From the IMG/VR virus record IMGVR_UViG_3300042327_000544, positions 1 to 64,000 of that record: a stretch of DNA of 64,000 nt; one strand, 5' to 3'. This document shows, one piece after another, positions 8,441 to 59,219 of the stretch; the stretch's first letter is position 1; every line of letters starts with the position of its first letter. The translations under genes and the position numbers were made by a program. The notes beneath the pieces were generated by a model that was given only the letters and a program-made list of their open reading frames with translations, ran no database searches and was not told the origin of the DNA. This stretch comes from a virus.

Positions 8441-8725
8441 TTATTGGTCTTGCTGGCTACTAGGATCTGCGGGAAAAGGATCATGCCTGACTCCGTCTGG
8501 CAACACTTTAATCAGAACCCCATTCCTGCGCCCTATCTTGTGTTTTTCAACTATTAAAGACTTCATTTCATCATTAGCCTTTTTCAAAATAGGGATCTGG
8601 TCTTGACCATCTTCGTATGGATTAATTGCTCCCATAATTGCGTTAATAGCCTTCATTACAATCGCCTGTTGCTTTTCAATTTCTGCAAATCTTAAGGCAT
8701 CTTCTTCTGAGAATTCTGTGTTCAT
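8441..8725 (-). CDS. Helical hypothetical protein, paralog of N-terminus of 10489..10920
   Basis: EIEKQQ...MKSLIVEK vs EIEIQQ...MKSLVLEK. Confidence 0.7.
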   Translation of the reverse strand: MNTEFSEEDALRFAEIEKQQAIVMKAINAIMGAINPYEDGQDQIPILKKANDEMKSLIVEKHKIGRRNGVLIKVLPDGVRHDPFPADPSSQQDQ

Positions 8726-8727
8726 TT

Positions 8728-9630
8728 TTATCCTATTCTTCCAGTCTTAAAATTAATATTAGCATATCTTTCATATTCGTCAAGTGTCCTTTTGTCTCCA
8801 AGCGCCTGATACCCTACAATATTATTGCCCACAATCCTAGCCAACTCTGCTAAAGAATCTACCAGCAGATCTTCAACTTCCTTTTTAAAATAATTACCTG
8901 GCAATTTTCTCATACTCATATCTTCATTCTCTGAATTATAGTATAGGTGATATATATTATTTTTTCTAGGAATCAATAGGTCATACCCGTGTGTATAAAA
9001 TCTAACTGAGTATAATGTCTCTTCTCCCCAATGAAGTATTTTTTTGTTTGGCTCAATCAGATGAAGATCTCCTGGGCCAAATATCTGAGCTCCAGACACA
9101 CCTTTTGTAAATATATTACCTTCTTTGTTGTGCATAGAGGCCTGCGGTAATATTTTGTCTTTTAAAAATTGTGCTTGGGCTTCTGGGGTATTAGGGTACC
9201 CTATGTATGGTGTATCATCGTTTGGCAGATATTTAACTTGACCGTCTTCATAAAGATAGACCGCTGGGTATGTCGTTAAGATTGGATTGAGGCCTGCTTC
9301 TTTATAATATATATAATCTGATATTAAATGCTCGTCCCAATTTTCTTCAAACCTGCTATGCGAATCAATTTGAAAATAATAATCTTCTCCGCTATAAAAA
9401 GAATTCGCTATGAATCTTCCTATCCCTACCCCAATTTTATCTGGCGCAATAGACTCTTCAAACTTAATATTAGGCATATCTGGAATGCTAATTTTATCTT
9501 CTTTAAAATAACAATTAAATACTCCAAAGCTAATTGTGTGTTTCCCAGAAGACTTACTCATGCAGTCTAATATAGTTAACGGAAGTTCCCGATCTTGAAA
9601 AGAAGATATTTGTACAAATATACTAGACAT
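8728..9630 (-). CDS. GT60-like polypeptide/hydroxyproline O-GlcNAc transferase (Pfam GlcNAc-like)
   Basis: SIFVQISSFQDREL..TI, GEDYYFQIDSHSRFEENWD (DSH motif), ILTTYP, WGEE..S.RFYTHGYD, YHLY, RTLDEYE match the Gnt1/GT60 pattern. Confidence 0.82.
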   Translation of the reverse strand: MSSIFVQISSFQDRELPLTILDCMSKSSGKHTISFGVFNCYFKEDKISIPDMPNIKFEESIAPDKIGVGIGRFIANSFYSGEDYYFQIDSHSRFEENWDEHLISDYIYYKEAGLNPILTTYPAVYLYEDGQVKYLPNDDTPYIGYPNTPEAQAQFLKDKILPQASMHNKEGNIFTKGVSGAQIFGPGDLHLIEPNKKILHWGEETLYSVRFYTHGYDLLIPRKNNIYHLYYNSENEDMSMRKLPGNYFKKEVEDLLVDSLAELARIVGNNIVGYQALGDKRTLDEYERYANINFKTGRIG

Positions 9631-10489
9631 TTATTTCCTTTTTATTCTCTAAAAACATATTAAGGCAGTATCCCGATATAGTATTTGGATCTGCATAATC
9701 CATATTGTCGTAGTGTCCGTCTCTAGCATCAAATTTTGAATACATACCTACTCCGTGCCACTGATGTATATGAAATATTCCGTCTAAACTATCTGTTGAA
9801 AAGCAATTAGCATCAATGGAATCAGTAGTAATAAATTTTTCTTCATTAAATAAAGATGAAATAACAATTTCTGTAGCAATAAGCGTTGATGTTCCAGAAT
9901 ATAATGATTTTAGCCAAGTCTCTTCTATGGTGTCTCCATACTTGCCATCTGGGCATAGATAGTAAAATATATCCTTGCATAAAATATCAGAAAGACCCAT
10001 TACCCTGATAATGTCTGAAGAGGGACCAATTAATGTTGCACCCGCATTAAATATTTTTTTGTATCCCGAGTAATTAAATATATTTGCCAACTCATAGGTT
10101 TGCTCGATACATCTTTCAGTTAATGAATAGAATCCAGGCCTAAAAGAAATCTTGTCGTCAAATACATAATTATTTAAATTATTGGTAACAAAAACATCAG
10201 TGTCTGTTTTTATTAAGTATTTATATTGATTAAGTATATGTTTATTTGATTCCATAAACTTTAAAGATTTAGCATACCTATATGTTTCATAATACACATT
10301 CTTTGGAGACTCATACTCATATACTAACACGTTGTGTCTTTTTTTTATTTGACTGGCTATTTCAGGCTCTGCAAAAAGTACAAAAGTAAATCTTTCATCC
10401 AGATCTTTACCACTTAGGGTCATTTGATTTGCCTCATTTACAAAATTCCCGCCTTTATCTACAAAAGCCGTAATAGCTATTTTTGACAT
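9623..10489 (-). CDS. Putative GT-A fold glycosyltransferase
   Basis: YLIKTDTDVF DxD motif, C-terminal HIHQWH; start probably MSKIAI (TAATG overlap). Confidence 0.6.
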   Translation of the reverse strand: MSKIAITAFVDKGGNFVNEANQMTLSGKDLDERFTFVLFAEPEIASQIKKRHNVLVYEYESPKNVYYETYRYAKSLKFMESNKHILNQYKYLIKTDTDVFVTNNLNNYVFDDKISFRPGFYSLTERCIEQTYELANIFNYSGYKKIFNAGATLIGPSSDIIRVMGLSDILCKDIFYYLCPDGKYGDTIEETWLKSLYSGTSTLIATEIVISSLFNEEKFITTDSIDANCFSTDSLDGIFHIHQWHGVGMYSKFDARDGHYDNMDYADPNTISGYCLNMFLENKKEINV

Positions 10490-10920
10490 TACCAATTTCC
10501 TATAGGGCAAGTTGAGGACTCAAACGATGAATACTCTTTTGCAAATACGCCCAGCGGTTTGCATTGCTTAGATATTGTAACAAATTCTGGGCAATTTGTA
10601 CAGATAGAGTATCTGCTGTCTGCAACTTCTGGCCCAACCTCACCTTTTTCTATTTGTTTCCATAAACTCGTTTCCCTTAATGACTCGTTTACCGACCCAT
10701 TATCTGGCGTAAATCCCAAACTAATCATAATATCAATTTTTTCTAAAACTAGCGACTTCATTAGCAATGTTTTTTCATTGTAAATCTCTTGAGCAATTAA
10801 ATATGATTCATCATTTATTTCTTTTGTTATTGTGCTATAAAGTATTTTTATTTCATCATTTAATAATCTCTGCTGAATCTCAATTTCTTGTATTCTATTT
10901 AATTTATCTATATTTGTCAT
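10489..10920 (-). CDS. Coiled-coil + Cys-rich (DUF6171-like) protein
   Basis: RYSICTNC...QC...CPIGNW C-terminus. Confidence 0.6.
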   Translation of the reverse strand: MTNIDKLNRIQEIEIQQRLLNDEIKILYSTITKEINDESYLIAQEIYNEKTLLMKSLVLEKIDIMISLGFTPDNGSVNESLRETSLWKQIEKGEVGPEVADSRYSICTNCPEFVTISKQCKPLGVFAKEYSSFESSTCPIGNW

Positions 10921-10932
10921 TTTTTCTCCCTA

Positions 10933-13236
10933 TTATTGGTTAATGGTAATGTTTGAAGACTCAGTGTAAGCTGCCTCGTCAGATGTTCCAATTGTGTAAA
11001 TGGCGTTTCCATTGCTTACTCTGCTGCCTCTACCTTGAACTCCCATCCTGAAAGTACCGTTTGTAACGTCAGTATAAACATCGCTTCTAGGTGTCTCGTC
11101 AAACAGTGTATGTTTAACGTTTGCGGTTGAAGTGGTACGTTGTAGACGTGTATTCCACCATAAAAATGTAACACTTGTTCTTGTTGAAGTCCAGGTCATA
11201 GTTATAGTTCTACCACTGGCGCTTCTTCCTACGCTGTTTACTGTAAATACCGCTGCTGGCAAAGCAGTTGTCGTAGTAGTTGGAGCTGCGGTAGTCGTAG
11301 TAGTCGTAGTTGTCGTAGTAGTAGGTGCTGGAGTAGTTGTAGTAGTCGTAGTAGTCGTAGTAGTCGTGGTAGTCGTGGTAGTAGTTGGTGCGGGTGTAGT
11401 AGTAGTTGTAGTAGTTGTAGTAGGATTTGCTTCAGTTGTTGCTGTTGCAAATGCTGACCATCTGCTTACTCCAGTAGCGTTCTTTGAACGAACCCACCAC
11501 CAGTATTGTGTATTTCCAGCTAAACCAGTTCTATTAGAGCTAGTTACATTTCCTATTTCATAATCTTCTGTAGTGTTTTTATCTATAATGTCACTATAAT
11601 CTCCCACAGTACTATAATATAAATGGTAATTAGTTGGTGATCCTCCTGCTGCATTCCAAGCCAAATCAATTCTGCTATTAGACATTCTTGTTGCTGTAAG
11701 TCCAGTTGGTCTAGAGGGGAACTGTGGATTTACGTTAGATGTATTTTCAGAATAAGCCCCTTCATCTTCTGTTCCTATCGACCAAAAGTCATCTCCAGTG
11801 TAATCGCCTACACCATGTGCCTGAACCCCGAATCTATAAGAGGTCATTGTAAGTCCAGTTCCTCCGATGTCATTAAAAAAATCTGTAGTTTTATCTTCTG
11901 CATCTGTTGTATAAAATGTATGTTTTGCAGTTCCCCCTGTACTGGTATTTCTAAGTCTGGTATTTAGCCAAAGGAGAGTTACGTTGGTAGTAGCAGTTCC
12001 AAATTTTGTCCAGGTTCCGTCTATTCTTCTATATATATTAGAAACAGCAGTAGGCACTCTATTCTCAAGAGTCTCTACAACTGCAGTTATTGGCCCTAAG
12101 TTTGGAGTGCTATGCTGTATAGACACAGCTGATCCAAGTGAGGAATCGCTAACAAGTCTAATTAATTTACCTACAGCGGTCACATTAGTGCTTGTTCCGT
12201 CAAGATAAAATTTTGCTGGTATAACTACCGAGTGATCTTGGTTATGTGATGTATCAGTTCCGCTGCCCAGTACTGTCCCATCAGAGTTGTATATAGGTAT
12301 CCAGGCTGAACGGTTAGTATTATAGTACTGGAACATCCAATAAACTTTGTCTGGCTCTGGTGAGTATGTTCCAGTATTTGCTGTTATTGTATTGCCAATT
12401 TGTACACCAGTTGTTTTCCATGATGGCATCGTAACAATTACTGGGGCTGTTGCAATTGTACCAGTAGGAGTAGCCCAAGCACTGAATGTTGATCCACCAG
12501 TATTTACAGCTTTAATTCTTCCTGATATCTTATGTGTTAAATCATCCTCTGAAATTAAATATGTGCTGTCAGTGTAATCTGTGCGTATAGCTCCAGTATC
12601 TTCCCACTTCCATTCGTACTCAAAAAGAGATGAGTCTGGTGAAGTATCATTTGTTCTATCTGTAGTTACTTTCCAGTCGGGGTCTGTTTGTGCAAAAATT
12701 CCTACCGTCTGACCAGGTTGTGGGGATCCAGGAGAGGTTACTCCAATATAATATCCTCCATTAGTTGTTAGTGATACTGGAGCATACTTAACTATTTTAA
12801 CTGGTGTAGCATTTGCTTCGTTAAAAAGTGTGCCGTCTGATGCACGTACAGTTACTGTTATCCATTTACCATCATCATCATCTGTTGTTGTGTATGCCGC
12901 TGAAGTTGCTGCACCAATGGCTACGAATGGGCCTGCTTCTGCGTCTGATCTAACCCACTGTCTAGTAAAAGTAGTTGCGCCATCCCAGCTTCCATTTGTG
13001 CTGTCATATATATCAAACGTTTTTCCGCCTAATCTTGGAGTTATTGTTGGAGAGCTATTAAGTGATGGGCCAGCACCCAAAAAAACTTGCACCCATTTGC
13101 TTGTAGTGCCCACAAGTTTTTTTACATACACAGTAGCTAAAGATGTCCAGTTTCCATTCTTTTTTAAGTATATCTTCTTAAGCTGTACCCATTTGCTTGT
13201 GCCGTTTACGTCTTTCTTTAAATATGCTTTTGGCAT
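10933..13236 (-). CDS. Tail-fibre tip/adhesin with Ig-like and FN3 domains and mucin-like poly-Thr stalk
   Basis: Lys/Trp repeat N-terminal docking segment; Ig-like repeats (STNGSW..TRQW..ITVTV); FN3 (PTGLTA..LAW..GLAGNTQYWWWVRSKN); Thr tract; duplicated terminal domain. Confidence 0.75.
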   Translation of the reverse strand: MPKAYLKKDVNGTSKWVQLKKIYLKKNGNWTSLATVYVKKLVGTTSKWVQVFLGAGPSLNSSPTITPRLGGKTFDIYDSTNGSWDGATTFTRQWVRSDAEAGPFVAIGAATSAAYTTTDDDDGKWITVTVRASDGTLFNEANATPVKIVKYAPVSLTTNGGYYIGVTSPGSPQPGQTVGIFAQTDPDWKVTTDRTNDTSPDSSLFEYEWKWEDTGAIRTDYTDSTYLISEDDLTHKISGRIKAVNTGGSTFSAWATPTGTIATAPVIVTMPSWKTTGVQIGNTITANTGTYSPEPDKVYWMFQYYNTNRSAWIPIYNSDGTVLGSGTDTSHNQDHSVVIPAKFYLDGTSTNVTAVGKLIRLVSDSSLGSAVSIQHSTPNLGPITAVVETLENRVPTAVSNIYRRIDGTWTKFGTATTNVTLLWLNTRLRNTSTGGTAKHTFYTTDAEDKTTDFFNDIGGTGLTMTSYRFGVQAHGVGDYTGDDFWSIGTEDEGAYSENTSNVNPQFPSRPTGLTATRMSNSRIDLAWNAAGGSPTNYHLYYSTVGDYSDIIDKNTTEDYEIGNVTSSNRTGLAGNTQYWWWVRSKNATGVSRWSAFATATTEANPTTTTTTTTTPAPTTTTTTTTTTTTTTTTTTPAPTTTTTTTTTTTAAPTTTTTALPAAVFTVNSVGRSASGRTITMTWTSTRTSVTFLWWNTRLQRTTSTANVKHTLFDETPRSDVYTDVTNGTFRMGVQGRGSRVSNGNAIYTIGTSDEAAYTESSNITINQ
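11266..11421 (-). repeat. Poly-threonine coding tract (about T9-PAP-T18-PAP-T11-AAP-T5)
   Basis: (ACN)n with mixed ACT/ACG/ACA/ACC codons. Confidence 0.95.
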
Positions 13237-13245
13237 GATCTTACC

Positions 13246-15759
13246 TTAATTATTCGTGCTAAACGCTAGGTCGCCGTTTTGACCGACGCTATTCCAGGTT
13301 GAACCTAGAATGGTTGTAGAGCTTGAGCCTGTAGTAAAAATTGCTCTTCCTCGTGTTACCTTTCCAGTTGCATCTGTTTGTAACATGGCTGGCTGATCTT
13401 TTGATGAAGTAGTTAAATGCTCTACTCCCCAGTTTTGTCCAGATATATTTTCATCTCCTATAAAGTAAAATCCCTTTTCGGTAGTATTGGCTCTTATTTC
13501 AAATCCCATGTACCCTGCACCACCAAGATAGTTTACATAGTTTGTTACTGCGCCACCTGAAGTTCCTGATGCATACCAGGTCTCTCCGTAATAAAATGTT
13601 GAATCTGGGAGCCCTCCTTCAAATAGGCTATCTGTAAATTTTACTGTATTTGACACAATGGTGTTCGTGGTTGTAGTTGAACCCCACTCATCATTTATGG
13701 GGTCGTATGTAGGAATAGAAACATACTCTGTAGTAGTTTGGGATGCTGGCATTATCGTATATCTTATATTAGTAAAGTTTAATCTTGTAGAGTCATCTGC
13801 AGTTTCTGTCTGACCTCCAGAAACGTTTGTACTTGCTGTCTGTTTTCCACTAAGGTTGATTGTAGCTCCAGTAACCGTACCACCCTCAATTGTAGTTCCA
13901 GTAACTTTAGTTCCAGTTATAAGCCCGCCAGAAATAGTTCCAGTGTTAGAGTTTAAAGTAATTACTCCATTTGTAGATCCAGCCTTTGATGTAATTGTTT
14001 CTGAATTTATTTGCCATCCGCTTGTAGTGTTACCCAGATATCCGCTGGAAGCTTTTATAACACCTGTTATATCAGCAGATGTTGCAGTAAGTCCTCCTGC
14101 TGCTGTTACTATAAACTGCCCGCCAGATCCTGCAGTAATAGATCCATCTGAGCCCAGGGTTGTGTTGGCCTTGCTGATAGCGTTTGCTGTAATTGACCAT
14201 CCGCCTATTGTTCCTTTATTAACAGTAATTCCAGATGCCGTGTCTAGCTGAAATAGGGTGCCGCCTGCATCTGTTCCTTGAATACCAACTCCTCCTGTGT
14301 ATGCGCCTTGAGCATTCGTAAAAGCTCCCATTTCAATTTTGGTGCCCGTTGGAGTATTAAGTTTAAATTGACCATATGCTGTAGCGCTTCCGACCTGTAT
14401 GGCGCCAGTAAAATTACCAGCATTTGCATTGACAGTTCCAGTTACTGATAGGTTACTTCCGTCCCACACAAGTTTATCTGTTGCACCACCAACTGATAAG
14501 TATGCAGCACTTGATAAATTTGTATTTCCCTGAACGTACCAGTAGTTATCTGGGGCAATATAAAGACCTTTTTTAGAATTATCTGAACTGATTCCATATC
14601 CTAATTTCATATCTCCCGCTGTGATTGCAACATCTGGTAAAAGAGAATTACTTACTGGAACTACTATGTCTTGATAGGTACGCCATTGCGTTTCATTAGT
14701 ATTGCCATAAATATCAAATGTACTTACTGCAATCTCATAAGACTTTCCGCCTTTAAGGCCATAGATGTACGAAGATGTTTTTTCTTTACCTGGAACAGAC
14801 ATGTATGTATAAGAAGAATTAGAGCCAGCTATTCTAAATCTTATTCTATATCCAGATGTACTAGCGTCTGCATTTTCTGTCCATGTAAACAAAACCTTTT
14901 TGTCAAAAGAAAATAATCCATTTGAATCATCAGTTACCGTAGTAGTACCAACATTAAACGTATTGACTGGTGGAGTACTGTCAAAAACTATTGGATCAAA
15001 TGGTACTGCCTCTTTAACGCTTGAGAAGCTAGACTTTAATCCTGTAATAGATACGTGCCTAATTTTAATATAATTTGTAGACAAAGATGCAACCGTTATA
15101 ATTGCTGGTCCTTTGCCAGAGTACACTAGATCGTATGTTCCAGACTGTGAGGATGAAGTGTGAACCTCTGTGTAGTTGTATGTAGGGGAAGAAGCTAATG
15201 CACCAGACCATGAAACTGTAAATCCATTTGATACAGAAAGCACTGACCAATCTGTATCAGAAACATTTTGACCTGAGATTGCATCTGCATAAGGAGGTAT
15301 TGCAAATGCTGTTCCAGTAGTAGATGTATCTATATATACGGTTTTTAATAGGCCCGTCAAAGTAGTTGGAAGAACGCCTGCAAAATTATTAATTAATTCT
15401 TGTGACGAGATGATAGCTTTTTGTTGAGGTTTTGTTTTATCAATAGAATATGCAAAAGGAACTGTAACTGCTCCCGAAGTTATATAAATAGTAAATAGAG
15501 TAGAAAGTAATGGGGCTTCCCACGATATTTCTAAATTAATTCCGTTCCATACAGAAGTTATATTGCTTGCCTCTGGTCTAGAAATTTCTGGGGTACTAAG
15601 ATTCTTAGAAGCAGACCAAAGACCATAAGACCCGTCTGCAAATTTCCATCTAAACTGTATAGGAACTATTCTTCCTGGATCTAAATCTGGGATGACAACA
15701 TCAAACGTATCGCTGCCAGCAGCGCCTACGCTATAGTCACCTAGATCTTCAAAAGCCAT
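13246..15759 (-). CDS. Tail fibre/spike protein with FN3 domains
   Basis: FN3 (GYRIRFR..GLKGGKSYEIAVSTFD), Gly/Thr-rich beta-helix-like repeats (GGWSIT, SGWQIN), GQNGDL C-terminus. Confidence 0.7.
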   Translation of the reverse strand: MAFEDLGDYSVGAAGSDTFDVVIPDLDPGRIVPIQFRWKFADGSYGLWSASKNLSTPEISRPEASNITSVWNGINLEISWEAPLLSTLFTIYITSGAVTVPFAYSIDKTKPQQKAIISSQELINNFAGVLPTTLTGLLKTVYIDTSTTGTAFAIPPYADAISGQNVSDTDWSVLSVSNGFTVSWSGALASSPTYNYTEVHTSSSQSGTYDLVYSGKGPAIITVASLSTNYIKIRHVSITGLKSSFSSVKEAVPFDPIVFDSTPPVNTFNVGTTTVTDDSNGLFSFDKKVLFTWTENADASTSGYRIRFRIAGSNSSYTYMSVPGKEKTSSYIYGLKGGKSYEIAVSTFDIYGNTNETQWRTYQDIVVPVSNSLLPDVAITAGDMKLGYGISSDNSKKGLYIAPDNYWYVQGNTNLSSAAYLSVGGATDKLVWDGSNLSVTGTVNANAGNFTGAIQVGSATAYGQFKLNTPTGTKIEMGAFTNAQGAYTGGVGIQGTDAGGTLFQLDTASGITVNKGTIGGWSITANAISKANTTLGSDGSITAGSGGQFIVTAAGGLTATSADITGVIKASSGYLGNTTSGWQINSETITSKAGSTNGVITLNSNTGTISGGLITGTKVTGTTIEGGTVTGATINLSGKQTASTNVSGGQTETADDSTRLNFTNIRYTIMPASQTTTEYVSIPTYDPINDEWGSTTTTNTIVSNTVKFTDSLFEGGLPDSTFYYGETWYASGTSGGAVTNYVNYLGGAGYMGFEIRANTTEKGFYFIGDENISGQNWGVEHLTTSSKDQPAMLQTDATGKVTRGRAIFTTGSSSTTILGSTWNSVGQNGDLAFSTNN

Positions 15760-15760
15760 A

Positions 15761-16684
15761 CTAGAATCCTAAATCCAATTTGTATTCGACTTCTACCTGT
15801 CTTCCAGACAATTTTACAAGCGGTGTAGATAATACAGACCTGCTTATCAAACCAAAATCTGGACTGAATGTATCTTCGTCATTAATTCTTAATGCGTCCA
15901 TATCTACCGAAGTTGATACTCCAGCCGCTGGAGTAATTGTAATACCTATCTGGTTAATATTAGAAGAGTCTACATTTAATGTACTGGCATTTGAAAAAAG
16001 ATTGCTTAGCGGTATACCAGGAGTTATCTTGTATCCCGTCCCAGACTCTGGAGTAATTGTGATAGAGTAATAGTCAGACGGAGAGCTATAAAATTTAATA
16101 ATAATGCTACTTAAGTTTTCATCTTCCTTAAAGTAAGCCAGTCTTAGGGTATCGTTTACGCTATAACCTGACAAGTCTATTTGCTGTACATTACTTTTAT
16201 ATTCTCTTGCCGCAGTTCCGTTAGAAGACATGCTTAAAGTATATTGCCCGACTCTAGAATTATTTAAAGATATAGATGGGTTGTTTGTCCAATCTAGTTG
16301 GCTTTCAAAATCTGCAATAAACTTGCTGTCGTAAGAAGTAATGGAGTCTCTAAACTCTGGGTAAATTCCTACCTCTGTAATGTATCCAGCCACATCTTGT
16401 GGTATTGTGGTTTTATAAACTACAGAATAAGTAGTGGTGTCATTTAATGTTTGTATATCAGTGCTACCAAATTCAACTGGAGTTCGATAAAATTCAAATC
16501 CCAGCCTTGTGTCTGCATCTGTTGCAGAGGTGCTATCAATTCCAAATGCCATTGTTTTTGAATTGAATGAGTCTCTTCCAGCAAGGAAACTCGTTAGGAA
16601 TCTTTTGCCATACTTTGTAATAACATTTGAAGAACGAAAAATTTCCTTACCGTCTTCATAATATACATATGTTCCTTTTATCAT
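15761..16684 (-). CDS. Minor tail/baseplate protein
   Basis: NVITKYGK..MAFG..LGFEFYR..ITEVGIY resembles tail-collar fibre N-terminal family; tail module context. Confidence 0.6.
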   Translation of the reverse strand: MIKGTYVYYEDGKEIFRSSNVITKYGKRFLTSFLAGRDSFNSKTMAFGIDSTSATDADTRLGFEFYRTPVEFGSTDIQTLNDTTTYSVVYKTTIPQDVAGYITEVGIYPEFRDSITSYDSKFIADFESQLDWTNNPSISLNNSRVGQYTLSMSSNGTAAREYKSNVQQIDLSGYSVNDTLRLAYFKEDENLSSIIIKFYSSPSDYYSITITPESGTGYKITPGIPLSNLFSNASTLNVDSSNINQIGITITPAAGVSTSVDMDALRINDEDTFSPDFGLISRSVLSTPLVKLSGRQVEVEYKLDLGF

Positions 16685-17517: not shown

Positions 17518-19230
17518 CTACAATGATCGACATGTGATCTCCGTATCTAGTCCATCGCTGAACGAATGTCTAACGTTTGTAACTATGAATTTCTGTGTTC
17601 CGTCTAGACCTTGATATGAGTATTTAACAGAAACAATATCTCCAACTGCAATAAATGGATTTCCAAATACCGATAAATTAATTAGCTTACCCTTATTCAC
17701 AATGTTATTTTTAATCCAAGCGCCAAGTGCTTCAACGTCTGAAAGATTTTGTAGCCAAGATGATTCAAAGATTATTGGCTCTTGATTAATATAATCTGAC
17801 AATATATCTGAGTTATACTCTAGGGTCCCAGACGGAGCAATTGTGTCTCCGTATATATAAAAGGTTGCTGCCTTTTCATCATTTAATGGGGTAAGAGCAG
17901 AGCTGTTATTTAATACGTAGGTCTCTCCGCCAAAATTGCTAACCTTTGATCCTAATATTTTTACAGAAGTATTTAAGCCTGTTGAAAATTTAATTGGGTA
18001 AGCTGGTGCGCTATTGTATCTTAAAGACACCTTTCTTATTTCTCTAACCGAGGTTCCAAATTCATCTATGCCCGCTGGCTTGGCAGCATTGTCTTGTTCT
18101 AGAGAGTTGTTGTAAATAATGTCTCCGAAACCAATATCTAAATAGTCGTTAGAAAAAGATCCCCTATACATGTTGCTTACAAATTCAGAATCATTGTATT
18201 TTTTTGCATCTATATCGGTGCCATACACGTAATCAAATATAGCCTCTCCATGTTGACATACTAGGGCAATTGTTTTTGTTGGCTTTAGCATTGGGGTAGA
18301 AGTTTTTTTACCATCTTCATCTTCATATATTGCCGTGCTGTCTGTAGCGGTAATTAAAAATCCATTAATGTATGCGTTGATTTTTATAGATGCCTGACTT
18401 ACTTTAATCTTAACATCAATATCATAAGACCTTCCTCCGTATACTCCATTGAGGCTAGTTACCGTATTCTTTTGACTATCATTTAATACACGTATATCTC
18501 CACCTTTTACCTTGCAAATTCTGACTTCTTTTTTATTAACAGCCCCTGCTGTTTCTGTGCTGTTAATGATAATATAATATCCGTCATTACCCTGACCATC
18601 TACAAAAAAGCCTAGCCCCGCTGACTGCCTTGTTCTATCAATAGTAGACTCTAAAAACATTTTTGTGCCAAATGCATAATGGCTTGTTGCATATGATGGA
18701 TAGGCTTCTTGAATAAAAGAAGGTAGGCCAGAGTAAAACAATGTATTTGTTGGCAGGGATATTGCATCAAATGTTCTATAGGCTACGGAAAATTCTTTTG
18801 GATTAGAAGAGCTGTTGCTCATTCTTAAAAATGATTTTGCGGCTGCTGCCTTAGTGGGATCCACGACCATGCCTTTATAACCAGCCACATTATATTCAAT
18901 TGGGGTAGTAAACGACCTGTAAACACTATTACCAAACGAGGTTCCGTTTCCAGCTTTTACAGAAATTCCATAGGATGTATTTGTTGAAAGGTTTTCTATT
19001 GTAAATGGATTTTGAGTTTTTAATACAGTTTGAGAGGTTCCAGAGACAATATTATTTGATGCATCAATCTTGTAGTAAGTAACAGAATAATTTACAGGCT
19101 CGGTTGTCATATTTGTTTTAGAAATTTTTACAGAAATTGATGACGTTGAAGTAAAAGTTATTTCTGGTATGCCGCCAATATTGGTTGTTGATTGAGCTAA
19201 GTACATATCAAGGAATCTGTCTACACCCAT
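17518..19230 (-). CDS. Tail tip/baseplate hub protein, C-terminal part
   Basis: FN3 N-terminus; GNPFIAVGDIVSV...FIVTNVRH hub-type ending; TAATG coupling at 19230. Confidence 0.65.
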   Translation of the reverse strand: MGVDRFLDMYLAQSTTNIGGIPEITFTSTSSISVKISKTNMTTEPVNYSVTYYKIDASNNIVSGTSQTVLKTQNPFTIENLSTNTSYGISVKAGNGTSFGNSVYRSFTTPIEYNVAGYKGMVVDPTKAAAAKSFLRMSNSSSNPKEFSVAYRTFDAISLPTNTLFYSGLPSFIQEAYPSYATSHYAFGTKMFLESTIDRTRQSAGLGFFVDGQGNDGYYIIINSTETAGAVNKKEVRICKVKGGDIRVLNDSQKNTVTSLNGVYGGRSYDIDVKIKVSQASIKINAYINGFLITATDSTAIYEDEDGKKTSTPMLKPTKTIALVCQHGEAIFDYVYGTDIDAKKYNDSEFVSNMYRGSFSNDYLDIGFGDIIYNNSLEQDNAAKPAGIDEFGTSVREIRKVSLRYNSAPAYPIKFSTGLNTSVKILGSKVSNFGGETYVLNNSSALTPLNDEKAATFYIYGDTIAPSGTLEYNSDILSDYINQEPIIFESSWLQNLSDVEALGAWIKNNIVNKGKLINLSVFGNPFIAVGDIVSVKYSYQGLDGTQKFIVTNVRHSFSDGLDTEITCRSL

Positions 19231-21470
19231 TATGCCCACGTAGCCTTTCTCTGAGACCAGTCCGCTAACCCAGTAAGGGCAGAGGCTGCATGATATGCTG
19301 GACTCGTTCCAAAGGCTCCTCTTGCTTTTACACGGTATAAACCTGTTGGCTTAAAAAATGTTTCTTTTGATATATAATCATAACCTGGTCTTGATAAATA
19401 TCTGTATTTATTTACATCTGACGATGAAGTAATCCAGACGTTCTGCGATGTGCTTGAGCCAATTGGAGTGTACTGGTATTGTATTGCATCATACTCAAAT
19501 ATTTCTGAATCAATCATAACATATCCTGAAAAATTATATAATGTTGCGCTACTATAGTCGTCTAATGTTTCTACATCAACTGCAAGTATTGTGTTTTCTG
19601 GGGACGTGTCTGCTGCTATGCTTGATCTCAATCCACCAGCACTCAAGTATGAAACCTCGTCTGTCCAAAGATCTCCTGAGTTTCCAGCATAATTAGATGT
19701 AAGTTGACTTTGCCATAAAATTTTAACCTGGTTTGCAGAAGGAATTTCTTGCTTATTAAAATCAACTATATTGGCAAGCGTTGTTCCATCTGTGTCGTAT
19801 GTAAATACCCAGTCTATGTTTGTTTTCTTGTAAATATAGTCACGGCTTGCGAACTGCAAAATGTTATTTTCATCAAAGAAAGCATTCATTTGTATATCAC
19901 GGCACAACTCTTGAAGAGCTTGCCAGACTGTTTTAGACCCTGTTGTCCACCAATAGTTAATAACTGGGATAGACTTATCGTCTGTTGCAGTTCTAATTTC
20001 ATAGCTTGTAAACCCTATAGAGTCTAAGAGCCTTCTTATAATACTGGTAACTGGATATGATTCGCATAGAATATCTGGTGCTACTGTATCCATTAGATAT
20101 TTAGCAGCATCTAGTGCATTTAAAGATACCTCTCCAGTGTCCGCTATCTCCCAAGAATCTATATAGAATGATCCCTGTGGGACCTTGTCAAATAATTCTC
20201 CCGCTGAACCATATGTTCCTGCAGAGTGATATACTGAAAAATAAGGCTTCATTTCTGCATTCTTAACTAGATATGTTTTTGTTATATCAAAATTTGCTTC
20301 TCTATTATATGAAACATATTCAAGTGCAGATTGATTATATTTAACTATGTCCATGCTTAGACTGTTTGCGGTAATCTTTCCAACAGGGAGTATGTCCTCT
20401 GAGCTTGAAGAAGATTCTTTTTCTATATTAAGAGAAGCTATGTCTGAAGATATATCCTTAATCCATCTTGCTGATAATTCAATAACTCCTAATACTTTAC
20501 CCCCGCCTGGATTTGTTGCTTGAAGTCTAATTGATTTAATTAATTTAGGTGTAGCGTAGGCGGCAGGCTCTGTAGAAGTCCATGTCGTTCCGTTATAATA
20601 TAACACAATCTGTCCAGATGCGTCTACGGAAGATGGGCCTACCGTTGCTGTTGTTGCATCTGAATATGTAATTGTCATTGTGTAGTTGCTTGGGAAGGCA
20701 TGATTTTTTTCAAATCTTGCAACTATTTTATTTGATACAGCAGGCTTTGTTGCTGCAGATAGTGTTGCTGTTGCTGATTGCTCTCTTGACCACGCTCCAG
20801 TAGCAGATGAAGCAATAGTAAAAGATGTTGGGCTTGGGGTAGAAGCAATTACGCCTGAAGATAAATTAAAGGCAGCAGTTGAAAGACCAGTAATAGTTAC
20901 CGTTTGCCCTGAAGAAAATCCGTGGTTATTTAATGTTTTGTATGTAACAATGGAGCCCGAAGAAGAAGCCTCTTTAACTGTTGCAGAAAGAGTAGAATAG
21001 TTAACAGTTAGATCTGCGCTTTGATTTATTGGTGTTACCCAATATTTATATGAAGTTGTTACTCCAGGGTAGTAAAGTCTTGGATATAGTGTTGTTGCGG
21101 CAGACTCGTATCCATCTGTTTGCGGAGATGTTGCTCGTGGATAGGTTAATGTTCTTGGAGCATAAAAACTATTTGCAGGAGTATCTGTTTGTAGTTTTGT
21201 CCAAATAAGATATTTTACTCCAGAAAACAGCGGTCTAAATGGCTTGATGATTGAATCAATTGGGAAAAGCTTTTTGTACGTATTAATTTTGCCATCTGCT
21301 GACTTAGCATAATATTGATCCATTGTGGATGGATAAGTAACGGTAATATTGTCTAGCATAGAGTTCATATTGTATTCTATTGTGCATCCTGTATTTATCT
21401 TAACAGAAGATTGCTGCTTAAATAAATTTTTAACAGTATTATTATTTGATGAAGGTACTGTGGTAATCAT
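19230..21470 (-). CDS. Tail tip/baseplate hub protein, N-terminal part
   Basis: Follows distal tail gene; TVWQALQELC..FFDENNILQF hub motif; start MITTV by TAATG overlap. Confidence 0.65.
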   Translation of the reverse strand: MITTVPSSNNNTVKNLFKQQSSVKINTGCTIEYNMNSMLDNITVTYPSTMDQYYAKSADGKINTYKKLFPIDSIIKPFRPLFSGVKYLIWTKLQTDTPANSFYAPRTLTYPRATSPQTDGYESAATTLYPRLYYPGVTTSYKYWVTPINQSADLTVNYSTLSATVKEASSSGSIVTYKTLNNHGFSSGQTVTITGLSTAAFNLSSGVIASTPSPTSFTIASSATGAWSREQSATATLSAATKPAVSNKIVARFEKNHAFPSNYTMTITYSDATTATVGPSSVDASGQIVLYYNGTTWTSTEPAAYATPKLIKSIRLQATNPGGGKVLGVIELSARWIKDISSDIASLNIEKESSSSSEDILPVGKITANSLSMDIVKYNQSALEYVSYNREANFDITKTYLVKNAEMKPYFSVYHSAGTYGSAGELFDKVPQGSFYIDSWEIADTGEVSLNALDAAKYLMDTVAPDILCESYPVTSIIRRLLDSIGFTSYEIRTATDDKSIPVINYWWTTGSKTVWQALQELCRDIQMNAFFDENNILQFASRDYIYKKTNIDWVFTYDTDGTTLANIVDFNKQEIPSANQVKILWQSQLTSNYAGNSGDLWTDEVSYLSAGGLRSSIAADTSPENTILAVDVETLDDYSSATLYNFSGYVMIDSEIFEYDAIQYQYTPIGSSTSQNVWITSSSDVNKYRYLSRPGYDYISKETFFKPTGLYRVKARGAFGTSPAYHAASALTGLADWSQRKATWA

Positions 21471-21952
21471 TATACTTGTTCCATTGAAATAGATACATTC
21501 CAAAATTCTTGAGCGGGATTGCTTGAAGAATCTTTAACGTTTCTCTTTATTACCTCAAAACTGCAAGACGCAAAAGACACCGTAAATATTTCTTCTCTAT
21601 CTGCAAATGGTGCTGTCTGATTCTTACCGTATACAATTTTAATCTTAAAAACACCTTGGCCTTTAGTGCTTTCAAAGTATGATTTTAAATCTACTGCTCC
21701 ATACCCTGCGTCTACCGTCATATTTGAAAATGATGGTAGCATTTCCCAGGATGTGCTAAATTCTCTTTTATCGGCAATAAAAAACTTTCTAAGTGTTCCA
21801 TTGCTCATTCTTGTTACTTTTTGAAAACGGTTTTGATTAATAGACATTGGCTGTCTATTGTGCTCTGAAAGTTTTGCCCAAGTAGGGGTGTCTGTAGCAG
21901 ATGTATCAATATATAGAAGTGAGCCTACTGGTAAATATACTGTGCTTGCCAT
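21470..21952 (-). CDS. Distal tail protein (Dit-like)
   Basis: Immediately after TMP; RMSNGTLR..KREFSTSWEMLP. Confidence 0.65.
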   Translation of the reverse strand: MASTVYLPVGSLLYIDTSATDTPTWAKLSEHNRQPMSINQNRFQKVTRMSNGTLRKFFIADKREFSTSWEMLPSFSNMTVDAGYGAVDLKSYFESTKGQGVFKIKIVYGKNQTAPFADREEIFTVSFASCSFEVIKRNVKDSSSNPAQEFWNVSISMEQV

Positions 21953-24900
21953 TAATATGATCCCCCGATAACAATATTTTCTCCAACTTTTGCGCCTTCA
22001 GCTTTAGCAATCTGCTTAAACTCTTTCCAAAGATCTCTACCACTCTTAGGAGATTCTCCAAAATTAAGTGTAGCATTAATAGTAACATTAGAACTACTTG
22101 AATTTGTAGTACCACTCTTGAATCCACCTGCTGTAGAGTATGAAGGAACATCGTATGTTGGCATTGTTGCAGCATTAGGATAAATTGTTCCTGAGAAATT
22201 AGGTTTCATTAATATACCCTCTGGCTGTGCACCCAGGGAATTAATTCTATCATTTACCCTTAACAGATCTCCAGCAGCAAATGGTCCGCCTCCCCATTTC
22301 TGTCTAATAATATCGGTTGCAGAATTTACCTTGTAGGTTCTTTGATTGTATTTAAAGAATTGCCCTGGCTGTAAATTATACTCTCTAACAATTTGCTCTT
22401 TAGCCCATTGCTCAAGGCCATCTTTATTTGTATTTCCTCCAAGTGACACGCCAGTCTTAGTTGTTGTTTTTGTAACTTCAAATGCAGTATCTTTAGTCTT
22501 AGAGCCAGCTGGTCCTATTCCCATATATGCATTATAAAGATCTGCAATAGTTTTTCCTCCTGTGATGGCCTTAGCATTTGCAAGTGCAGCTGCTGAATCC
22601 TTTTTTAATGCTGCATCTGCTGCACCAGGTTTGTAGGTGGCCGATCCCTTTGGATGAGTCGCAGTCATAACTCTGCCTGCAGTAGACTCTCCCTTTTCAT
22701 TAATCAATGTGCCAGTAAATATTTTCTTTAGCTCTGTTGCTAAAACTTTATCAGAACCTTTTGCGTCTGCAGCAATTTGCTTTGCAAGATCTCCCAAAGG
22801 CCCTCTTACTAGCTCCTGTTGATCCTTTAATGCTTGTTTGTTTGATGGATCCTTTTCTAGAATTACATCTATTCTAGCTTGTTCTTTTACTAGTCTCTGA
22901 TATTCGTTTTGATACTGATCAACTTTATTCATTCTTTCGCCTGCTGAAGTAGCATTGTTTTGAGCGTTAGTTAAATTTTTTGCAGTCTTATCTGACTGAG
23001 CTTGCAGCTTTTCTCTTTGAGCAATTAATTCTTTTTCACGCTTAGCTCTATTTTCTTCAATTGCATCAATAGCTTTTTGATTTTCTCTTTCGCCAACAAG
23101 CTGCTTAATCTTTAGCTGTGCTTGTGCTGCTCCCGCCATATCTCCTGCAGCCATCTTGTCTGCGTATTCTAGTTGAGCTTTTTGAATTTCTAAAGATAGG
23201 TTTTCTTTGTTCTGGGCAGCCTCAAGTGCTTTCTTTCGGGCATCAGCCTCTTCATTAATCTTATCAATTTTTTTGTCAATAAGTTTAATTTCTTCTTTAA
23301 TCTGATCTTGAGTTTTTTGTGCATTAGCCGCTGCTTTGGCTCCACCAGATGCAATTAATTTTTGCAAAGCAACAATAGACTTTTGTGATTTAGCTGCAAT
23401 TCCGCTTCCTGAAGACTTTGCTTCCGAAGCAGCTAAGGCAGAATCTAATGCTGCCTCAAATGCTACTAGTGCTTGGGCTTGCTCGGATGTTATATTCTTT
23501 AAATCAGTTCTAACTCCAGAAAGAAGTAGTCGCCATTTAGAATACATACCTGCAACGTTGTCTGATTGATTAAGTATTTCAGCAAGTGCTGGATGTGTTT
23601 CTTTAAGAGAATTAATCTGCGCTTGAGTTAGTGTTAGTTTAGATCCTTCTTTTTCATTAATGCTAGCTAGGATTTCTGACATAGCTTCTTGCTGTGTCAT
23701 CAATTCCCCATTTTCCTTTTTAGTTTTCATTAATGTTTGTAAATTATCATCAAGAGCATCTGTAGTATTTGAAATAACTACACCTAAATCTTTTCCGTAT
23801 AGGACGTCTGTATCGTATCCTGCAGAAGCTGGGTCATACATATTTTTATTTAAAGTTTTAACCATAGCAATTGCTGCTGATGCAGAATCTGTGATTTCTC
23901 TAAAGCCCTTACTAGATATTGCATTAAATGCCATATCGGCTTTATCTGATGCAGATATAATTGCATAAATTTTATTTGTTGCTTCTTGAGCAGAAATGCC
24001 TGCTGCTATAAATTGTGCCTTTAAGTTAGTAGCAATTTCAGTAACTTTTGCCTGCTTGTTAGCATCTCCAGATACATCTATGTCAGTAAAGGTTGAAACT
24101 AGCTCTTTCTGGTTTTCTTTTGCATTCTTTATTCCTGCTCTTAACTCTTTAATGCTTAGAGTTAGACCTTGAACTCCCGCTGAGTTGAGGGCTTCATAGG
24201 CATTTCTTCCCTTTGCCCTAGTTAGCTCAAGTTGATCATTAACCGCTTTAATAGAATTAGAAAGATTGTTGTATTTAATTCCCGCTTCAGCTGCAGACTT
24301 TTCAGTAATTCCAACTGAGTTAGTTTTTTCAATTCTATCTTGCTCTCGTTCTTTTTGGAACTTCTTAAATATTGCATATCCCGCAGTAAGCGCTGTAAGA
24401 AGTAATCCGATAGGTCCTAGTGCAAATCTCATTGCCATTCCAATTGCTTTACCAGCAATTCCTGCTGCGCCGCCAACGCCTTTAAATCCTCCAGCAAGCT
24501 TACCTAAAGATCCTAGCATATTCGGAGCAAGCATTGGAAGCACTGATGCAAATTGCATAATTTGTCCTGCTTGTCCGCCGATTGCTTGTCCTGCCATACC
24601 CATTCCCATACCAATGCCCATACCAGCCATTGGACCAGAGCTCATCATTCCAGCTCCTATGTTACCCTTTGCTCTTTCTTGCCTATAAGCAGATCCGAAT
24701 GTTATTGGCTGAACTGGCTTTTTAGTTCCTTTGTTAAAGTACTGAACTCCTGGCACCATTCCGCCCTTGTTCATTCCGAACATTTGTTTTCTTACTTTAG
24801 TAGTTGCAGGTGTCCATGACTTTGAATCCCAGTTTGCAAACTTGGTTCTCAATATCTCTCTGTCTATTTTACTTAAACTTTTTCCTCCTGTGCTAAGAAC

Positions 24901-27900
24901 ATCCCCAGCGGCGGATTTAAGAAGTGTATCTACAATATCTGGCTCTAGAGCTTTTTGAAGACTTCCCTGAGCATCCTTTACGTATCCGTATGGTCTTTCT
25001 TTTTCAAGATTTTCAATCATCTTGCCATACATTAAGTTTTGTGCTTTAGGTGTTAGGCCAGAGCTTCCGAATAGCTTTCTTCCCATACCAATAGATAGAG
25101 AAGTAGCGCCCCACTTTTCTCCTATTTTTCCAAACTTAGCTCCTACGTTTTTAAAAGCTGTACTCTTTAATATATTACCTACTGGCCCACCTCTGTTTAA
25201 TTTTGTTGCGCCAAACAAGGACGCTATTGTCTGTATAAATGGATTTGACGCTTCTTTTGAATGATAAAATTTATTTGGATTGCCTCCAGCTGCGGAAGCT
25301 TCTAGGTTTGCAAATTTTATTGTTTTTCCATTTACATCAATTTTATTTAGCCATCCAGTGGAGGCTCTACGTGTAGGGTGTGCAAAACTTCCTGGAGAAT
25401 TCGACCATTTGCTCCAAGCTTCTAAACCTAGTGCATTGCCGCCTAGTTCTTTTCTCAACAAAGATTCAGATACTGAATAAACTGGGTTATTAGAGTCATT
25501 AACCTTACCCATTGAAAGAATCTTTTTTGCATAAGAATTAAATACTAATTTTGAAAGTCTTCTTTTTTCTGCTTTTGAAATTACTCCTGCGTTAGCTAGG
25601 CCATCTAAAAATACATCAGTAGATAATCTTGACCCTCCACCTCTTGCATTTATAGAGGCAAGCAACGTTCTTGGGTCTACGCCTTCTCCTGTCATGTCCG
25701 CATTTATTTTTGATGTTGATGCAGAAATTTTTCTGCTAGAAACATTGCCTCCAAAAACACCAGCGTTGCCTTTTGGCTCATAATAATCAGCAGTTGCACG
25801 ATCTGTAAGCCTTCCTGGAAATAATTTATCTATTAGTTTTTTTGAAACCATTGGTCTTGATCCGCCGCCACGGGTCATTTTTAAAAATGCCTGGACCATT
25901 CCGCCCAAATTATATGCGCCGTTAGTAGACTGCTGACCATTGTTAATTGCTTGAAGCAATGGTAGATTTGCTGCTGTGGCTTCTTTGTTTACAACAAATT
26001 CACCTGGAGTAAGAATTGCTGGAACTGTGTCTGTATTTCCAGTTCCTGGAACAATATTTCCAGCATTTAATCTCTTAGGTATAGTTGTTTCTGTACTGTA
26101 TCCAGCACCAAATGTTTTTACACCTAGACCTTGTGCAATTTTATTAAGAAGGCTTCTAGTTCTTCCTGGGCGAAGAAGCTCTTTCATATTAGTTTTGCCA
26201 GCGGCATTTACAACTGGCTGATTTAATAGAGGGACTGTTGTTAGCCCTATTGTTCTTCCTTGTTGGCCCGCAATATCTACAGAAGCCTGTGCAATCATAG
26301 ATTCTACCTGAGCATTTAATTGAATAATCTTAGCTCTTGCTTGATCTACTGTTAGCTTGCCAGCCTGCAACTGTGCAACAATTGCTGCAGATTCTGCTGC
26401 TGCATTTGCAGTAAGCTTAGTCATTGTTGGAAGCAGTGCTTGATAAGAGTCGGACAAGGATGCTGTTATAAGCCCAGTAGAGGCAACTTCTTTTTTAAGT
26501 AAAGCAATTTCTGCTTGCGATTGCATTGCAAGTGCGCCTGTCATTGCATGCCATTTTGCAGCTTCTGCTGCAACAATACCAGTTGAAGCTCCTCCGATTG
26601 ATGTTAGTCCTGGAATCTTTGGAAGATCACCAGACATATACATCTGAGGATTATTTCCAATCTTTTGATTTACTTTTGGTGCCCCAGGTACTACTCCGAA
26701 AATTGTTTGTGTTGATTTTTGATCCATCGTCATTCCAGCAACTGGATTAAGATGAGACATTGATCTTGTATCTTCTGGGCTAATTAGTGGGTGATTTGGA
26801 TCAACAACTCTTGCCCCGCTGCCCTTAACAACGTTACCCGCCAAGGTTGAAATTGTTGGTGCTGCAGATACTGCACCCGTCATAGCTTTAGATTGAAGTA
26901 ATTCAAATTCTGTTACGAGGCCTGCAATTGCAGTTTTTAATACTGTGGCTGCTTGAGCATCACTATAAAATGTAGCCTCAACAAGTGATCCTGCTTTTTG
27001 TGCTGCCAAAATTTCTGGCGTAAGCATCTTCCATCCTTCTCCACCCTTAAACAAGGCCCTGAAGTGTGATGCTCCTTTAATTATATATCCAAAGAAGTTG
27101 GCAAGTACACCAGTTAACATAATTACTGGTCCGATGATTGCAGTAAATCCTGTAACAAATGTCAACAAAGATTTAATTGGGTCTGGCAATTTATTTATAA
27201 ACTTAATAATACCATCTACAATATTAATAAAGAATGTTTGAATCTTTAGGAACTCGTCGCCAATTCCTGCAAGATCTGCCTTTAAGCCTTCTACTGCTCT
27301 TTTGTATTTTCCAGAAGCGGATTCTGTTACCATTGATAATTCTCGACCTGCTACCTGTGACAACTCTTCAGAGCTTGCTTTCATTAAATCCATTACCTGA
27401 AGGGTCTGACTTCCCTGCTTGCCTAGGTTTGCAAACAAAGCATTAAGTCTAGAGAACTGAAACTTACCAAACAACTGTTCAATTGCCTGTTGCTTTTGTA
27501 GTGGATCTAGGTTATCTAGTGCTGCTTGAAGAGCGAAAAGTGTTCCTGTTAGATCTCCAGCATTTTTTGCTACAATCCCGCCAAGGTCAATTCCCATTTC
27601 AGAAAACTTTTCTTTTGCTACCTTTGTAGGATTAATTAAAGATGCTAGTGCTGATTTGAGAGCGTTAGCTCCTTCTGAAGCATTAATTCCGCCTTCCTTC
27701 ATTGCAGTTAGATACAATGCTAAGTCCTGTACGCTTCCGCCTAAACCTTGAATAACTGGACCCGCTTTTGGAATTGCTTCTACTAGGTCATTAAGAGTTG
27801 TTGATGTTTGGTTTTCAACTGAGTTGAGAAAGTTAATAGATTCAGAAAGCTGATCTGTATTTTGCTTAAATGTAGTTTGAATTGCCAGGGTGGCCTTCAT

Positions 27901-59203: not shown

Positions 59204-59219
59204 AATTTCTCCTTTTATT

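Follow-up and report, generated by a model that had tools for sequence, protein, structure and literature searches.

Whether a tailed phage can glycosylate a threonine-rich segment of its own tail fiber is the question raised by a locus located at positions 8728-13236 of a 64,000-nucleotide stretch of viral DNA (called here the window), which corresponds to positions 1-64,000 of the linear 86,979-bp IMG/VR record IMGVR_UViG_3300042327_000544, a genome estimated to be 80% complete. At this locus, a fiber gene carrying a poly-Thr tract is followed by the genes of two glycosyltransferases (GTs), one of which belongs to the GT60 family and the other to the DUF7164 family. In an initial annotation of this DNA, it was proposed that the phage builds a glycosylated mucin-like stalk, using one GT to initiate the glycans and another to extend them. 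The family membership of the GT60 enzyme, its predicted fold, and its comparative linkage to Thr tracts support this proposal as the best reading of the locus: the fiber linker probably undergoes cytoplasmic mucin-type O-glycosylation by the GT60 enzyme, the glycans being extended by the DUF7164 enzyme.

The Poly-Thr Tract of the Fiber Protein

The open reading frame (ORF) at 10933-13236 (minus strand) is the last gene of the tail block, where it follows the tail genes, and homologs of its product occupy the same position in the related phages. It encodes a tail-fiber-like protein of 767 amino acids (aa), the proposed acceptor, which is composed of an N-terminal K/W repeat, immunoglobulin (Ig)/fibronectin type III (FN3)-like domains, a poly-Thr linker, and a C-terminal domain. 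The linker, at aa 606-657 (11266-11421, minus strand), shows the layout T9-PAP-T18-PAP-T11-AAP-T5, and its Thr residues are the proposed O-glycosylation sites. The initial annotation had counted about 43 Thr in 52 residues and had described the synonymous codons as mixed. Both statements hold: the tract contains 43 Thr in 52 residues, which are encoded by ACT (26), ACG (8), ACA (6), and ACC (3) codons interleaved with each other. With the threshold set at 70% Thr or more across 25 aa in ORFs of 100 aa or longer, this tract is unique in the window. The tracts of the relatives L001 (88% identical) and L003 (78% identical) are similar in length (about 50 residues) and differ in their internal layout.

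Of the two domains said to flank the tract, the terminal one stands, while the FN3 domain placed before the tract is plausible as an Ig/FN3-type domain on the basis of matches lying below the thresholds. The region at aa ~515-602 gave sub-threshold matches only, namely Ig_J_second (PF24489, E 1.3e-4) and FN3-like Atlas features (0.88), and the Atlas search of the C-terminal half of the fiber returned only FN3/Ig leads, all below 0.9. The C-terminal domain (aa 658-767; 10936-11265, minus strand) is a diverged, paralogous copy of aa 403-502 of the same protein (BLASTP, 38% identity, E 9e-15). Since the tract sits between domains, it is an inter-domain linker by which the distal domain is tethered.

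The GT60 Enzyme

The gene at 8728-9630 (minus strand; phrog_24687, glycosyltransferase) encodes a protein of 300 aa, the proposed initiating polypeptide O-glycosyltransferase. This protein matches the Pfam model PF11397, "Glycosyltransferase (GlcNAc)," where GlcNAc stands for N-acetylglucosamine, with 115.6 bits (E 4.7e-33) at a cut-off of 21, and PF11397 was present in all 120 homologs among the matches listed. Since PF11397 is the Pfam model of the CAZy family GT60, the GT60-like character guessed at in the initial annotation from a DSH motif turns out to be correct, the protein being a PF11397/GT60 member by profile match. Across 21 diverse homologs, the residues D89-S-H91, H228, and G202-E203-E204 do not vary; the conserved DxH and WGxE-type motifs may correspond to those of GT27, and D89, H91, and H228 are candidate counterparts of the Mn2+ ligands of GT27 and GT60. 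The GT60 family consists of polypeptide alpha-GlcNAc-transferases related to GT27 and devoid of the ricin domain, which in protists initiate mucin-type glycosylation at domains rich in Ser/Thr (PMC8724618).

The structure search that the initial annotation had recommended for this enzyme points in the same direction. With the predicted model, which has a predicted local distance difference test (pLDDT) score of 95.6, the top 29 PDB fold matches are all catalytic domains of the mucin-type polypeptide N-acetylgalactosamine (GalNAc) transferases (ppGalNAc-Ts) of family GT27, with Z values of 18.8-22.4 and ~250-266 residues aligned; the other GT-A enzymes reach Z values of 16.9 at most. Residues 1-300 align to GalNAc-T catalytic domains (residues 135-440 of T2, for example), and in the model, strand beta-1 (residues 3-11) lies at the very start of the protein and the catalytic domain runs to the end. 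Neither a membrane anchor nor a lectin domain was found in the enzyme, which is limited to the catalytic domain. The protein matched neither PF00535 nor any lectin model at E values up to 1, and the features that define GT27 membership (ricin-like lectin, type II membrane topology, and PF00535) are lacking, whereas the GT27-related GT-A catalytic domain without any ricin-type lectin domain, which is typical of GT60, is present. A profile search of the enzyme against the PDB sequences gave no match.

The PF11397 family is large in prokaryotes, where it comprises 4508 representatives, many of which are long and carry tandem GT domains. The best-scoring representatives of the family (P0174-P0183) are 1000-2500 aa long and contain two to four tandem PF11397-like domains; Thr runs occur in none of them. 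One of these proteins, P0175, bears the source name of a proline 4-hydroxylase/peroxiredoxin fusion.

Linkage of GT60 Genes to Thr Tracts

A GT60 relative is encoded by 373 IMG/VR viral contigs, and 80 of these loci were fetched for neighborhood counts. At a threshold of 70% Thr+Ser over 20 aa, a Thr/Ser-rich tract was found within 5 kb upstream of GT60 in 46 of the 55 loci having at least 5 kb of upstream DNA, as against 1 of 52 downstream, and seven of the nine apparent exceptions among the 55 carry shorter Thr runs or Thr-rich repeats. Since the GT60 gene is always located just after the fiber genes, its position alone could yield this pattern, and syntenic relatives were therefore used as a control. 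This group was composed of 80 relatives fetched via the tail protein at 15761-16684, 61 of which had enough downstream DNA. A fiber gene with at least nine Thr in 12 aa was present in nine of the 10 syntenic relatives carrying GT60, whereas none of the 51 relatives lacking GT60 reached this value, the maximum being eight. In the initial annotation, GT genes unlinked to Thr/Ser-rich genes had been named as an argument against the proposal; what was found is the opposite, both in the fetched loci (46/55 upstream vs 1/52 downstream) and in the syntenic ones (9/10 vs 0/51).

In the tree of the tail protein, the GT60 state changes at least seven times and that of the tract at least six times, and among the independent pairs there are five in which the Thr tract goes along with GT60, none in which it opposes it, and one without any difference. 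The tract carriers present beside GT60 belong to at least 16 unrelated sequence clusters ranging from 110-aa proteins to 1365-aa fibers, and it is therefore the tract, and not a protein family, that accompanies the enzyme. The tract windows are composed of about 59% Thr and 7% Pro, and Pro is absent from some tracts; what the GT60-linked tracts have in common is Thr.

These data also bear on the idea that the tract might be a functionless product of neutral replication slippage, to which the GT genes are adjacent by chance. The low complexity of the tract and the differences in internal layout between close relatives are in line with slippage. However, the four synonymous codons are interleaved, so that the tract is not a pure trinucleotide repeat, its length of ~50 residues has been kept across relatives that are 78-88% identical, and the association statistics (46/55 vs 1/52; 9/10 vs 0/51) speak against chance. 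We regard this explanation as extremely improbable.

Several points nevertheless weigh against the glycosylation of the linker. The argument in favor of it is comparative and structural throughout, being drawn from sequences and predicted models. The sign test on the independent pairs gives a p value of 0.06, which is the best reachable with five informative pairs, and the window's own genome (80% complete) does not contain the epimerase present beside GT60 in some of the relatives (see below). Of 120 IMG/VR stretches containing 13 or more Thr codons in a row, just one had GT60 nearby; poly-Thr runs are therefore rarely near GT60, and the link is one-directional. In the case of the bacterial relatives (257 genome loci, 25-31% identity), a Thr-rich stretch was present nearby in only four of the 80 loci fetched. 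The sole cultured-phage relative, Xoo-sp13 (26% identity), has its GT60 gene in a replication region beside a carbamoyltransferase. With Thr tracts so rare beside the bacterial members and with the Xoo-sp13 gene in such a context, PF11397 membership is no proof of a protein acceptor, and the GT60-Thr tract link is specific to this clade. Lastly, in the case of L004 (L004:6985-10912), where the GT60 is 72% identical, nine Thr codons in a row are found nowhere: this 115-kb phage genome, which is 92% complete, lacks DUF6171 and DUF7164 while its GT60 is intact, and the enzyme may be either orphaned or directed at another acceptor.

The possibility that the GTs act on some other target, such as a host envelope glycan, the phage DNA, or a small molecule, and that the tract is simply an unmodified flexible linker would be compatible with the bacterial and Xoo-sp13 relatives occurring in contexts without Thr tracts, with the retention of GT60 in L004 in the absence of any Thr run, with the widespread occurrence of poly-Thr linkers without GT60, and with the location of the cassette where the tail module adjoins the replication module. 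A non-fiber target fails, however, to explain the 9/10 vs 0/51 contrast and the repeated joint gain and loss of the enzyme and the tract, as well as the fact that unrelated carriers have gained a tract beside the enzyme. In addition, a search of the 87-kb record found no hydroxymethylase of the thymidylate-synthase type, by which a DNA acceptor could be created, and the solved folds nearest to GT60 are those of polypeptide-acting enzymes. We consider a non-fiber target rather unlikely.

In two Pseudomonadota contigs from metagenome-assembled genomes (L301:10022-10801 and L311:10231-10812), a TTTF/PTTT-repeat protein is encoded 1-2 kb downstream of a GT60-like gene that is only distantly related, and these pairs may be bacterial equivalents of the pairing seen in phages. 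As regards the fibers themselves, in many of those linked to GT60, such as the fibers of L010, L012, L014, L017, L031, and L035 (L012:6219-9287, for example), the Thr run leads directly to a Cys-x-Cys motif (TTTTTTSCTCVY, TTTTACVCNY), which gives the impression that it stops at a disulfide- or metal-bound module. The fiber of the GT60-less syntenic relative L254 (L254:13091-15625) is an 844-aa protein consisting of repeated Cys-rich modules (CPDTGPNVGDRCGAC-like) without any Thr tract.

The DUF7164 Enzyme and the Proposed Pathway

The gene at 9623-10489 (minus strand) encodes a DUF7164 glycosyltransferase (PF23741, E 4.6e-18) with a TDTD motif, the proposed extending enzyme. The ATG at 10489 is the probable start, giving 288 aa, whereas a TTG at 10510 would give 295 aa; the DUF7164 homologs are 288 aa long and begin with MxKIAIT. 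This is the protein described in the initial annotation as a DxD GT, and the motif in question, D103-x-D105, is indeed invariant in the DUF7164 homologs. With the predicted model (pLDDT 88.6), all 50 entries among the fold matches listed are GT6 enzymes (ABO GTA/GTB, alpha3GalT, and BoGT6a; Z 15.9-16.7), and the structural alignments with GT6 cover 205-224 residues at 6-11% identity. The model thus shows a GT6-type GT-A fold with a DxD motif. At the sequence level, the GT6 Pfam model gave no match to the protein, PF23741 alone passing the threshold and Galactosyl_T giving a weak sub-threshold match, and the search against the PDB sequences returned only noise. GT6 is a glycan-extending family of retaining alpha-1,3-Gal/GalNAc transferases, and the likeness of DUF7164 to its members (ABO GTA/GTB, alpha3GalT, and the Bacteroides BoGT6a) is based on the fold (Z ~16-16.7), the DxD motif, and the glycan extension proposed here, whereas the lack of any GT6 Pfam match and the 6-11% identity in the structural alignments set it apart.

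GT60 was found within 2 kb of DUF7164 in 13 of the 14 informative viral loci, while DUF7164 is present in only 11 of the 80 GT60 loci. The fact that DUF7164 occurs almost only with GT60, whereas GT60 occurs mostly without DUF7164, is what would be expected if an extender relied on an initiator, and this asymmetry, along with the GT6-like fold, is in keeping with the pair of initiating and extending GTs postulated in the initial annotation.

In the pathway that we propose, the GT60 enzyme would transfer the first sugar from a host uridine diphosphate (UDP)-sugar onto the Thr hydroxyls of the linker, and this transfer would take place in the host cytoplasm, before or during the assembly of the virion. 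By analogy with the family, the first sugar would be an alpha-linked N-acetylhexosamine (HexNAc). The GT6-like DUF7164 enzyme would add a second sugar to this first glycan, and the fiber would thereby acquire a mucin-like stalk that is extended and densely O-glycosylated. What the analysis shows are the sequence features, the assignments to families and folds, and the comparative association of GT60 with Thr tracts; the role of the tract as the acceptor, the sugar, the linkage, and the order of action of the two enzymes are inferred, and the benefit of a glycosylated stalk might consist in stiffening or reach, protease resistance, or shielding.

Other Genes Associated with GT60 and the Possible Role of Oxygenases

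Other enzymes are recurrently encoded next to GT60. In 29 of the 80 loci, a radical S-adenosylmethionine (SAM)/SPASM enzyme is encoded directly upstream of GT60 (as in L070:7874-8887: PF04055, E 1.3e-9; PF13186, E 1e-8), which suggests that the same Thr-rich proteins undergo a second modification. In 21 of the 80, a nicotinamide adenine dinucleotide (NAD)-dependent epimerase/dehydratase is encoded directly downstream (as in L065:946-1743: PF01370, E 2.6e-22), as is to be expected in the case of an enzyme using a nucleotide sugar; some of the relatives may be able to produce the donor sugar, possibly a 4-epimer, by themselves.

In eight loci, a 2-oxoglutarate (2OG) oxygenase of the prolyl-hydroxylase type (PF13640) is encoded upstream of GT60 and close to the Thr-rich gene; in about 90% of the GT60 loci, the cassette lacks any oxygenase. 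In L242 (L242:16317-18503), the genes encode, in this order, a (TPAP)n/(GPGP) repeat protein, a DUF6171 protein, the PF13640 2OG oxygenase (17964-18503, E 1.9e-6), and GT60, the oxygenase gene being directly before that of GT60. In the window, no oxygenase gene was found between 8441 and 13236, so that the prolyl 4-hydroxylase preceding GT60 that would be expected of a Skp1-type system is present in L242 and not in the window cassette. Two genes of the 2OG-Fe(II) oxygenase type (one matching PF13640, E 1.4e-13) are present at 58556-60426 in the window, where they adjoin the gene of a PASTA-domain protein (60852-62036), and this group of genes is a candidate for a separate protein-modification locus of the same phage. 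The same PF13640 oxygenases also occur in the GT60-less relatives L234, L258, and L259.

These oxygenases raise the question as to whether the sugar might be added to hydroxyproline (Hyp) instead of Thr. In a Hyp route of this kind, resembling that of Skp1, a 2OG prolyl hydroxylase would act on the prolines of the PAP and AAP motifs, GT60 would glycosylate the Hyp residues, and the Thr residues would serve as a spacer. The characterized Gnt1 enzymes of the GT60 family do act on Hyp (PMC6939170). The L242 oxygenase lies directly before a GT60 whose neighbor carries a (TPAP)n repeat in place of a Thr run, an oxygenase is found upstream of GT60 in the eight loci mentioned above, the long GT60 relative P0175 is named as a proline 4-hydroxylase in its source, and the genome of the window does encode PF13640-type oxygenases at 58556-60426. 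However, the window cassette has no oxygenase, and the nearest ones, which are the latter, lie at a distance of 48 kb from it and next to another candidate substrate rich in Pro; most of the GT60 loci have no cassette oxygenase, and oxygenases of this kind are found where GT60 is missing; and it is the Thr run that covaries with GT60, several of the tracts being devoid of Pro. A Skp1-like Hyp route is probably real in some of the relatives and is unlikely in the phage of the window, and as an explanation for the present locus we find it distinctly doubtful.

Organization of the Gene Block and the Genome

As stated in the initial annotation, the gene of the DxD GT is located two genes downstream of the fiber gene and that of the GT60 enzyme three genes downstream. 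The gene directly after the fiber gene (10489-10920, minus strand; phrog_13558) encodes a DUF6171-related protein of 143 aa with a Cys-containing C-terminus, the homologs of which match PF19668 (E 2e-8). As these homologs are present in 72 of the 80 GT60 loci, the protein was first taken to be a partner of the GTs, but this idea was rejected because they also occur in GT60-less relatives (L254:15914-16189, for example): the gene belongs to the backbone of this phage group and is not specific to the GT cassette. The window copy is longer than those of the relatives (143 aa vs ~76-101 aa) and lacks two Cys of their CxxCGC motif (CKPLGVF vs CKKCGCF).

The 143-aa gene and the DUF7164 gene overlap at 10489 (TAATG), the DUF7164 and GT60 genes overlap by 8 nucleotides (ATGTCTAG at 9630-9623), and a gap of 2 nucleotides (8726-8727) separates the GT60 gene from an ORF of 94 aa (8441-8725, minus strand), for which the Pfam and PHROG searches gave no match. 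The minus strand from 13236 to 8441 was found to contain no terminator-like site. Judging from this organization, the GTs appear to be translationally coupled to the fiber gene block. Homologs of the 94-aa ORF were found only in the three closest relatives (L001-L003), and it is uncertain whether this ORF belongs to the cassette.

The source of the DNA is a large siphovirus from freshwater metagenomes. The minus strand carries every long ORF in the window, and the Pfam and PHROG matches show a siphovirus gene order: the portal (36072-37655), a protease, the capsid (33604-34653), the tape measure (21952-28779), the minor tail proteins (17518-21503), the phrog_9983 tail protein (15761-16684), and, after the latter, an 837-aa protein with a weak FN3 match (13246-15759). 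The nearest cultured relatives are large Streptomyces phages, with which the portal and the capsid share 58-60% identity. The host marker WhiB, a sugar epimerase, and a GT2 were looked for and not found in the 87 kb of the genome. A megablast search of the region against 50,697 phage records gave no match, and the tblastn search of GT60 against the phage records gave a single distant match, that with Xoo-sp13 (26% identity), in an unrelated context.

Comparison with Known Systems and Implications

The phage enzyme resembles the GT60 alpha-GlcNAc-transferases of Dictyostelium and Trypanosoma cruzi, including Gnt1, in its PF11397 domain, its restriction to the catalytic domain, and its pairing with a Thr-rich mucin-like sequence as the putative acceptor (PMC8724618, PMC6939170). 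GT60 enzymes can act in the cytoplasm, as in the case of Skp1 (PMC6939170), and since the phage GT60 is soluble, a Gnt1-like cytoplasmic action is plausible. Unlike these enzymes, it is phage-encoded, and its presumed acceptor is the linker of a virion fiber; the Skp1/Gnt1 system also differs from the window cassette in that the latter has no adjacent prolyl hydroxylase, and many prokaryotic members of the family, unlike the known GT60 enzymes, have no Thr-tract neighbor. The GT27 ppGalNAc-Ts of animals and apicomplexans, such as human GalNAc-T2, provide the best fold match (Z up to 22.4, ~260 residues) and are likewise linked to dense Thr arrays, whereas the phage enzyme, with 10-14% identity and no lectin domain, membrane anchor, or PF00535 match, is not a member of GT27.

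A similar scheme is seen in the bacterial serine-rich-repeat (SRR) adhesins, where O-HexNAc initiation on the long Ser/Thr repeats of a surface fiber takes place in the cytoplasm and is followed by extension, the GT genes (GtfA/GtfB and the extending GTs) being located beside that of the substrate. The initiators of the SRR adhesins are GT-B enzymes (GT4), and the substrate is exported via the accessory Sec system, whereas the phage enzymes are of the GT-A type and their substrate is assembled into the virion.

To our knowledge, virion glycosylation in tailed phages has been demonstrated experimentally only in mycobacteriophages. The GTs of the mycobacteriophages Che8 and Rita are reported to decorate the phages' own structural proteins in the host cell, the glycans being present at the C-termini of the capsid and tail-tube subunits (Freeman et al. 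2023, as cited in PMC11256854 and PMC12619734). This capsid and tail-tube glycosylation is the nearest precedent. In the present case, the candidate acceptor differs in being an internal poly-Thr fiber linker, and the enzymes belong to PF11397 and DUF7164; within the window, a Thr tract is found in the fiber gene alone, the capsid gene (33604-34653) being devoid of one. No publication on a phage GT60 and poly-Thr cassette, or on PF11397/DUF7164 in phages, was found in a literature search.

Mucin-type initiation by GT27 and GT60 enzymes is usually regarded as eukaryotic. The balance of the data tips slightly in favor of the view that tailed phages of environmental bacteria possess a mucin-type O-glycosylation system of their own, in which a minimal GT60 and poly-Thr "acceptor tags" move together as an accessory and fiber linkers are converted into glycosylated mucin-like stalks, and which is modular, with DUF7164 extenders, epimerases, prolyl-hydroxylase-type oxygenases, and radical-SAM enzymes as optional components. 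If this is true, mucin-initiation enzymology would be widespread in prokaryotic viruses and glycosylated phage particles would be common in nature. The pairing of a compact, soluble enzyme of 300 residues with a simple poly-Thr tag in hundreds of environmental phages would show virion glycosylation to be widespread, would provide a minimal model, and possibly a tool, for dense O-glycosylation in the bacterial cytoplasm, and would raise testable questions as to how glycan-coated fibers affect host recognition, protease resistance, and the persistence of phages. The joint gain and loss of the enzyme and its tag also provides a rare comparative handle on the pairing between an enzyme and its substrate that does not require experiments.

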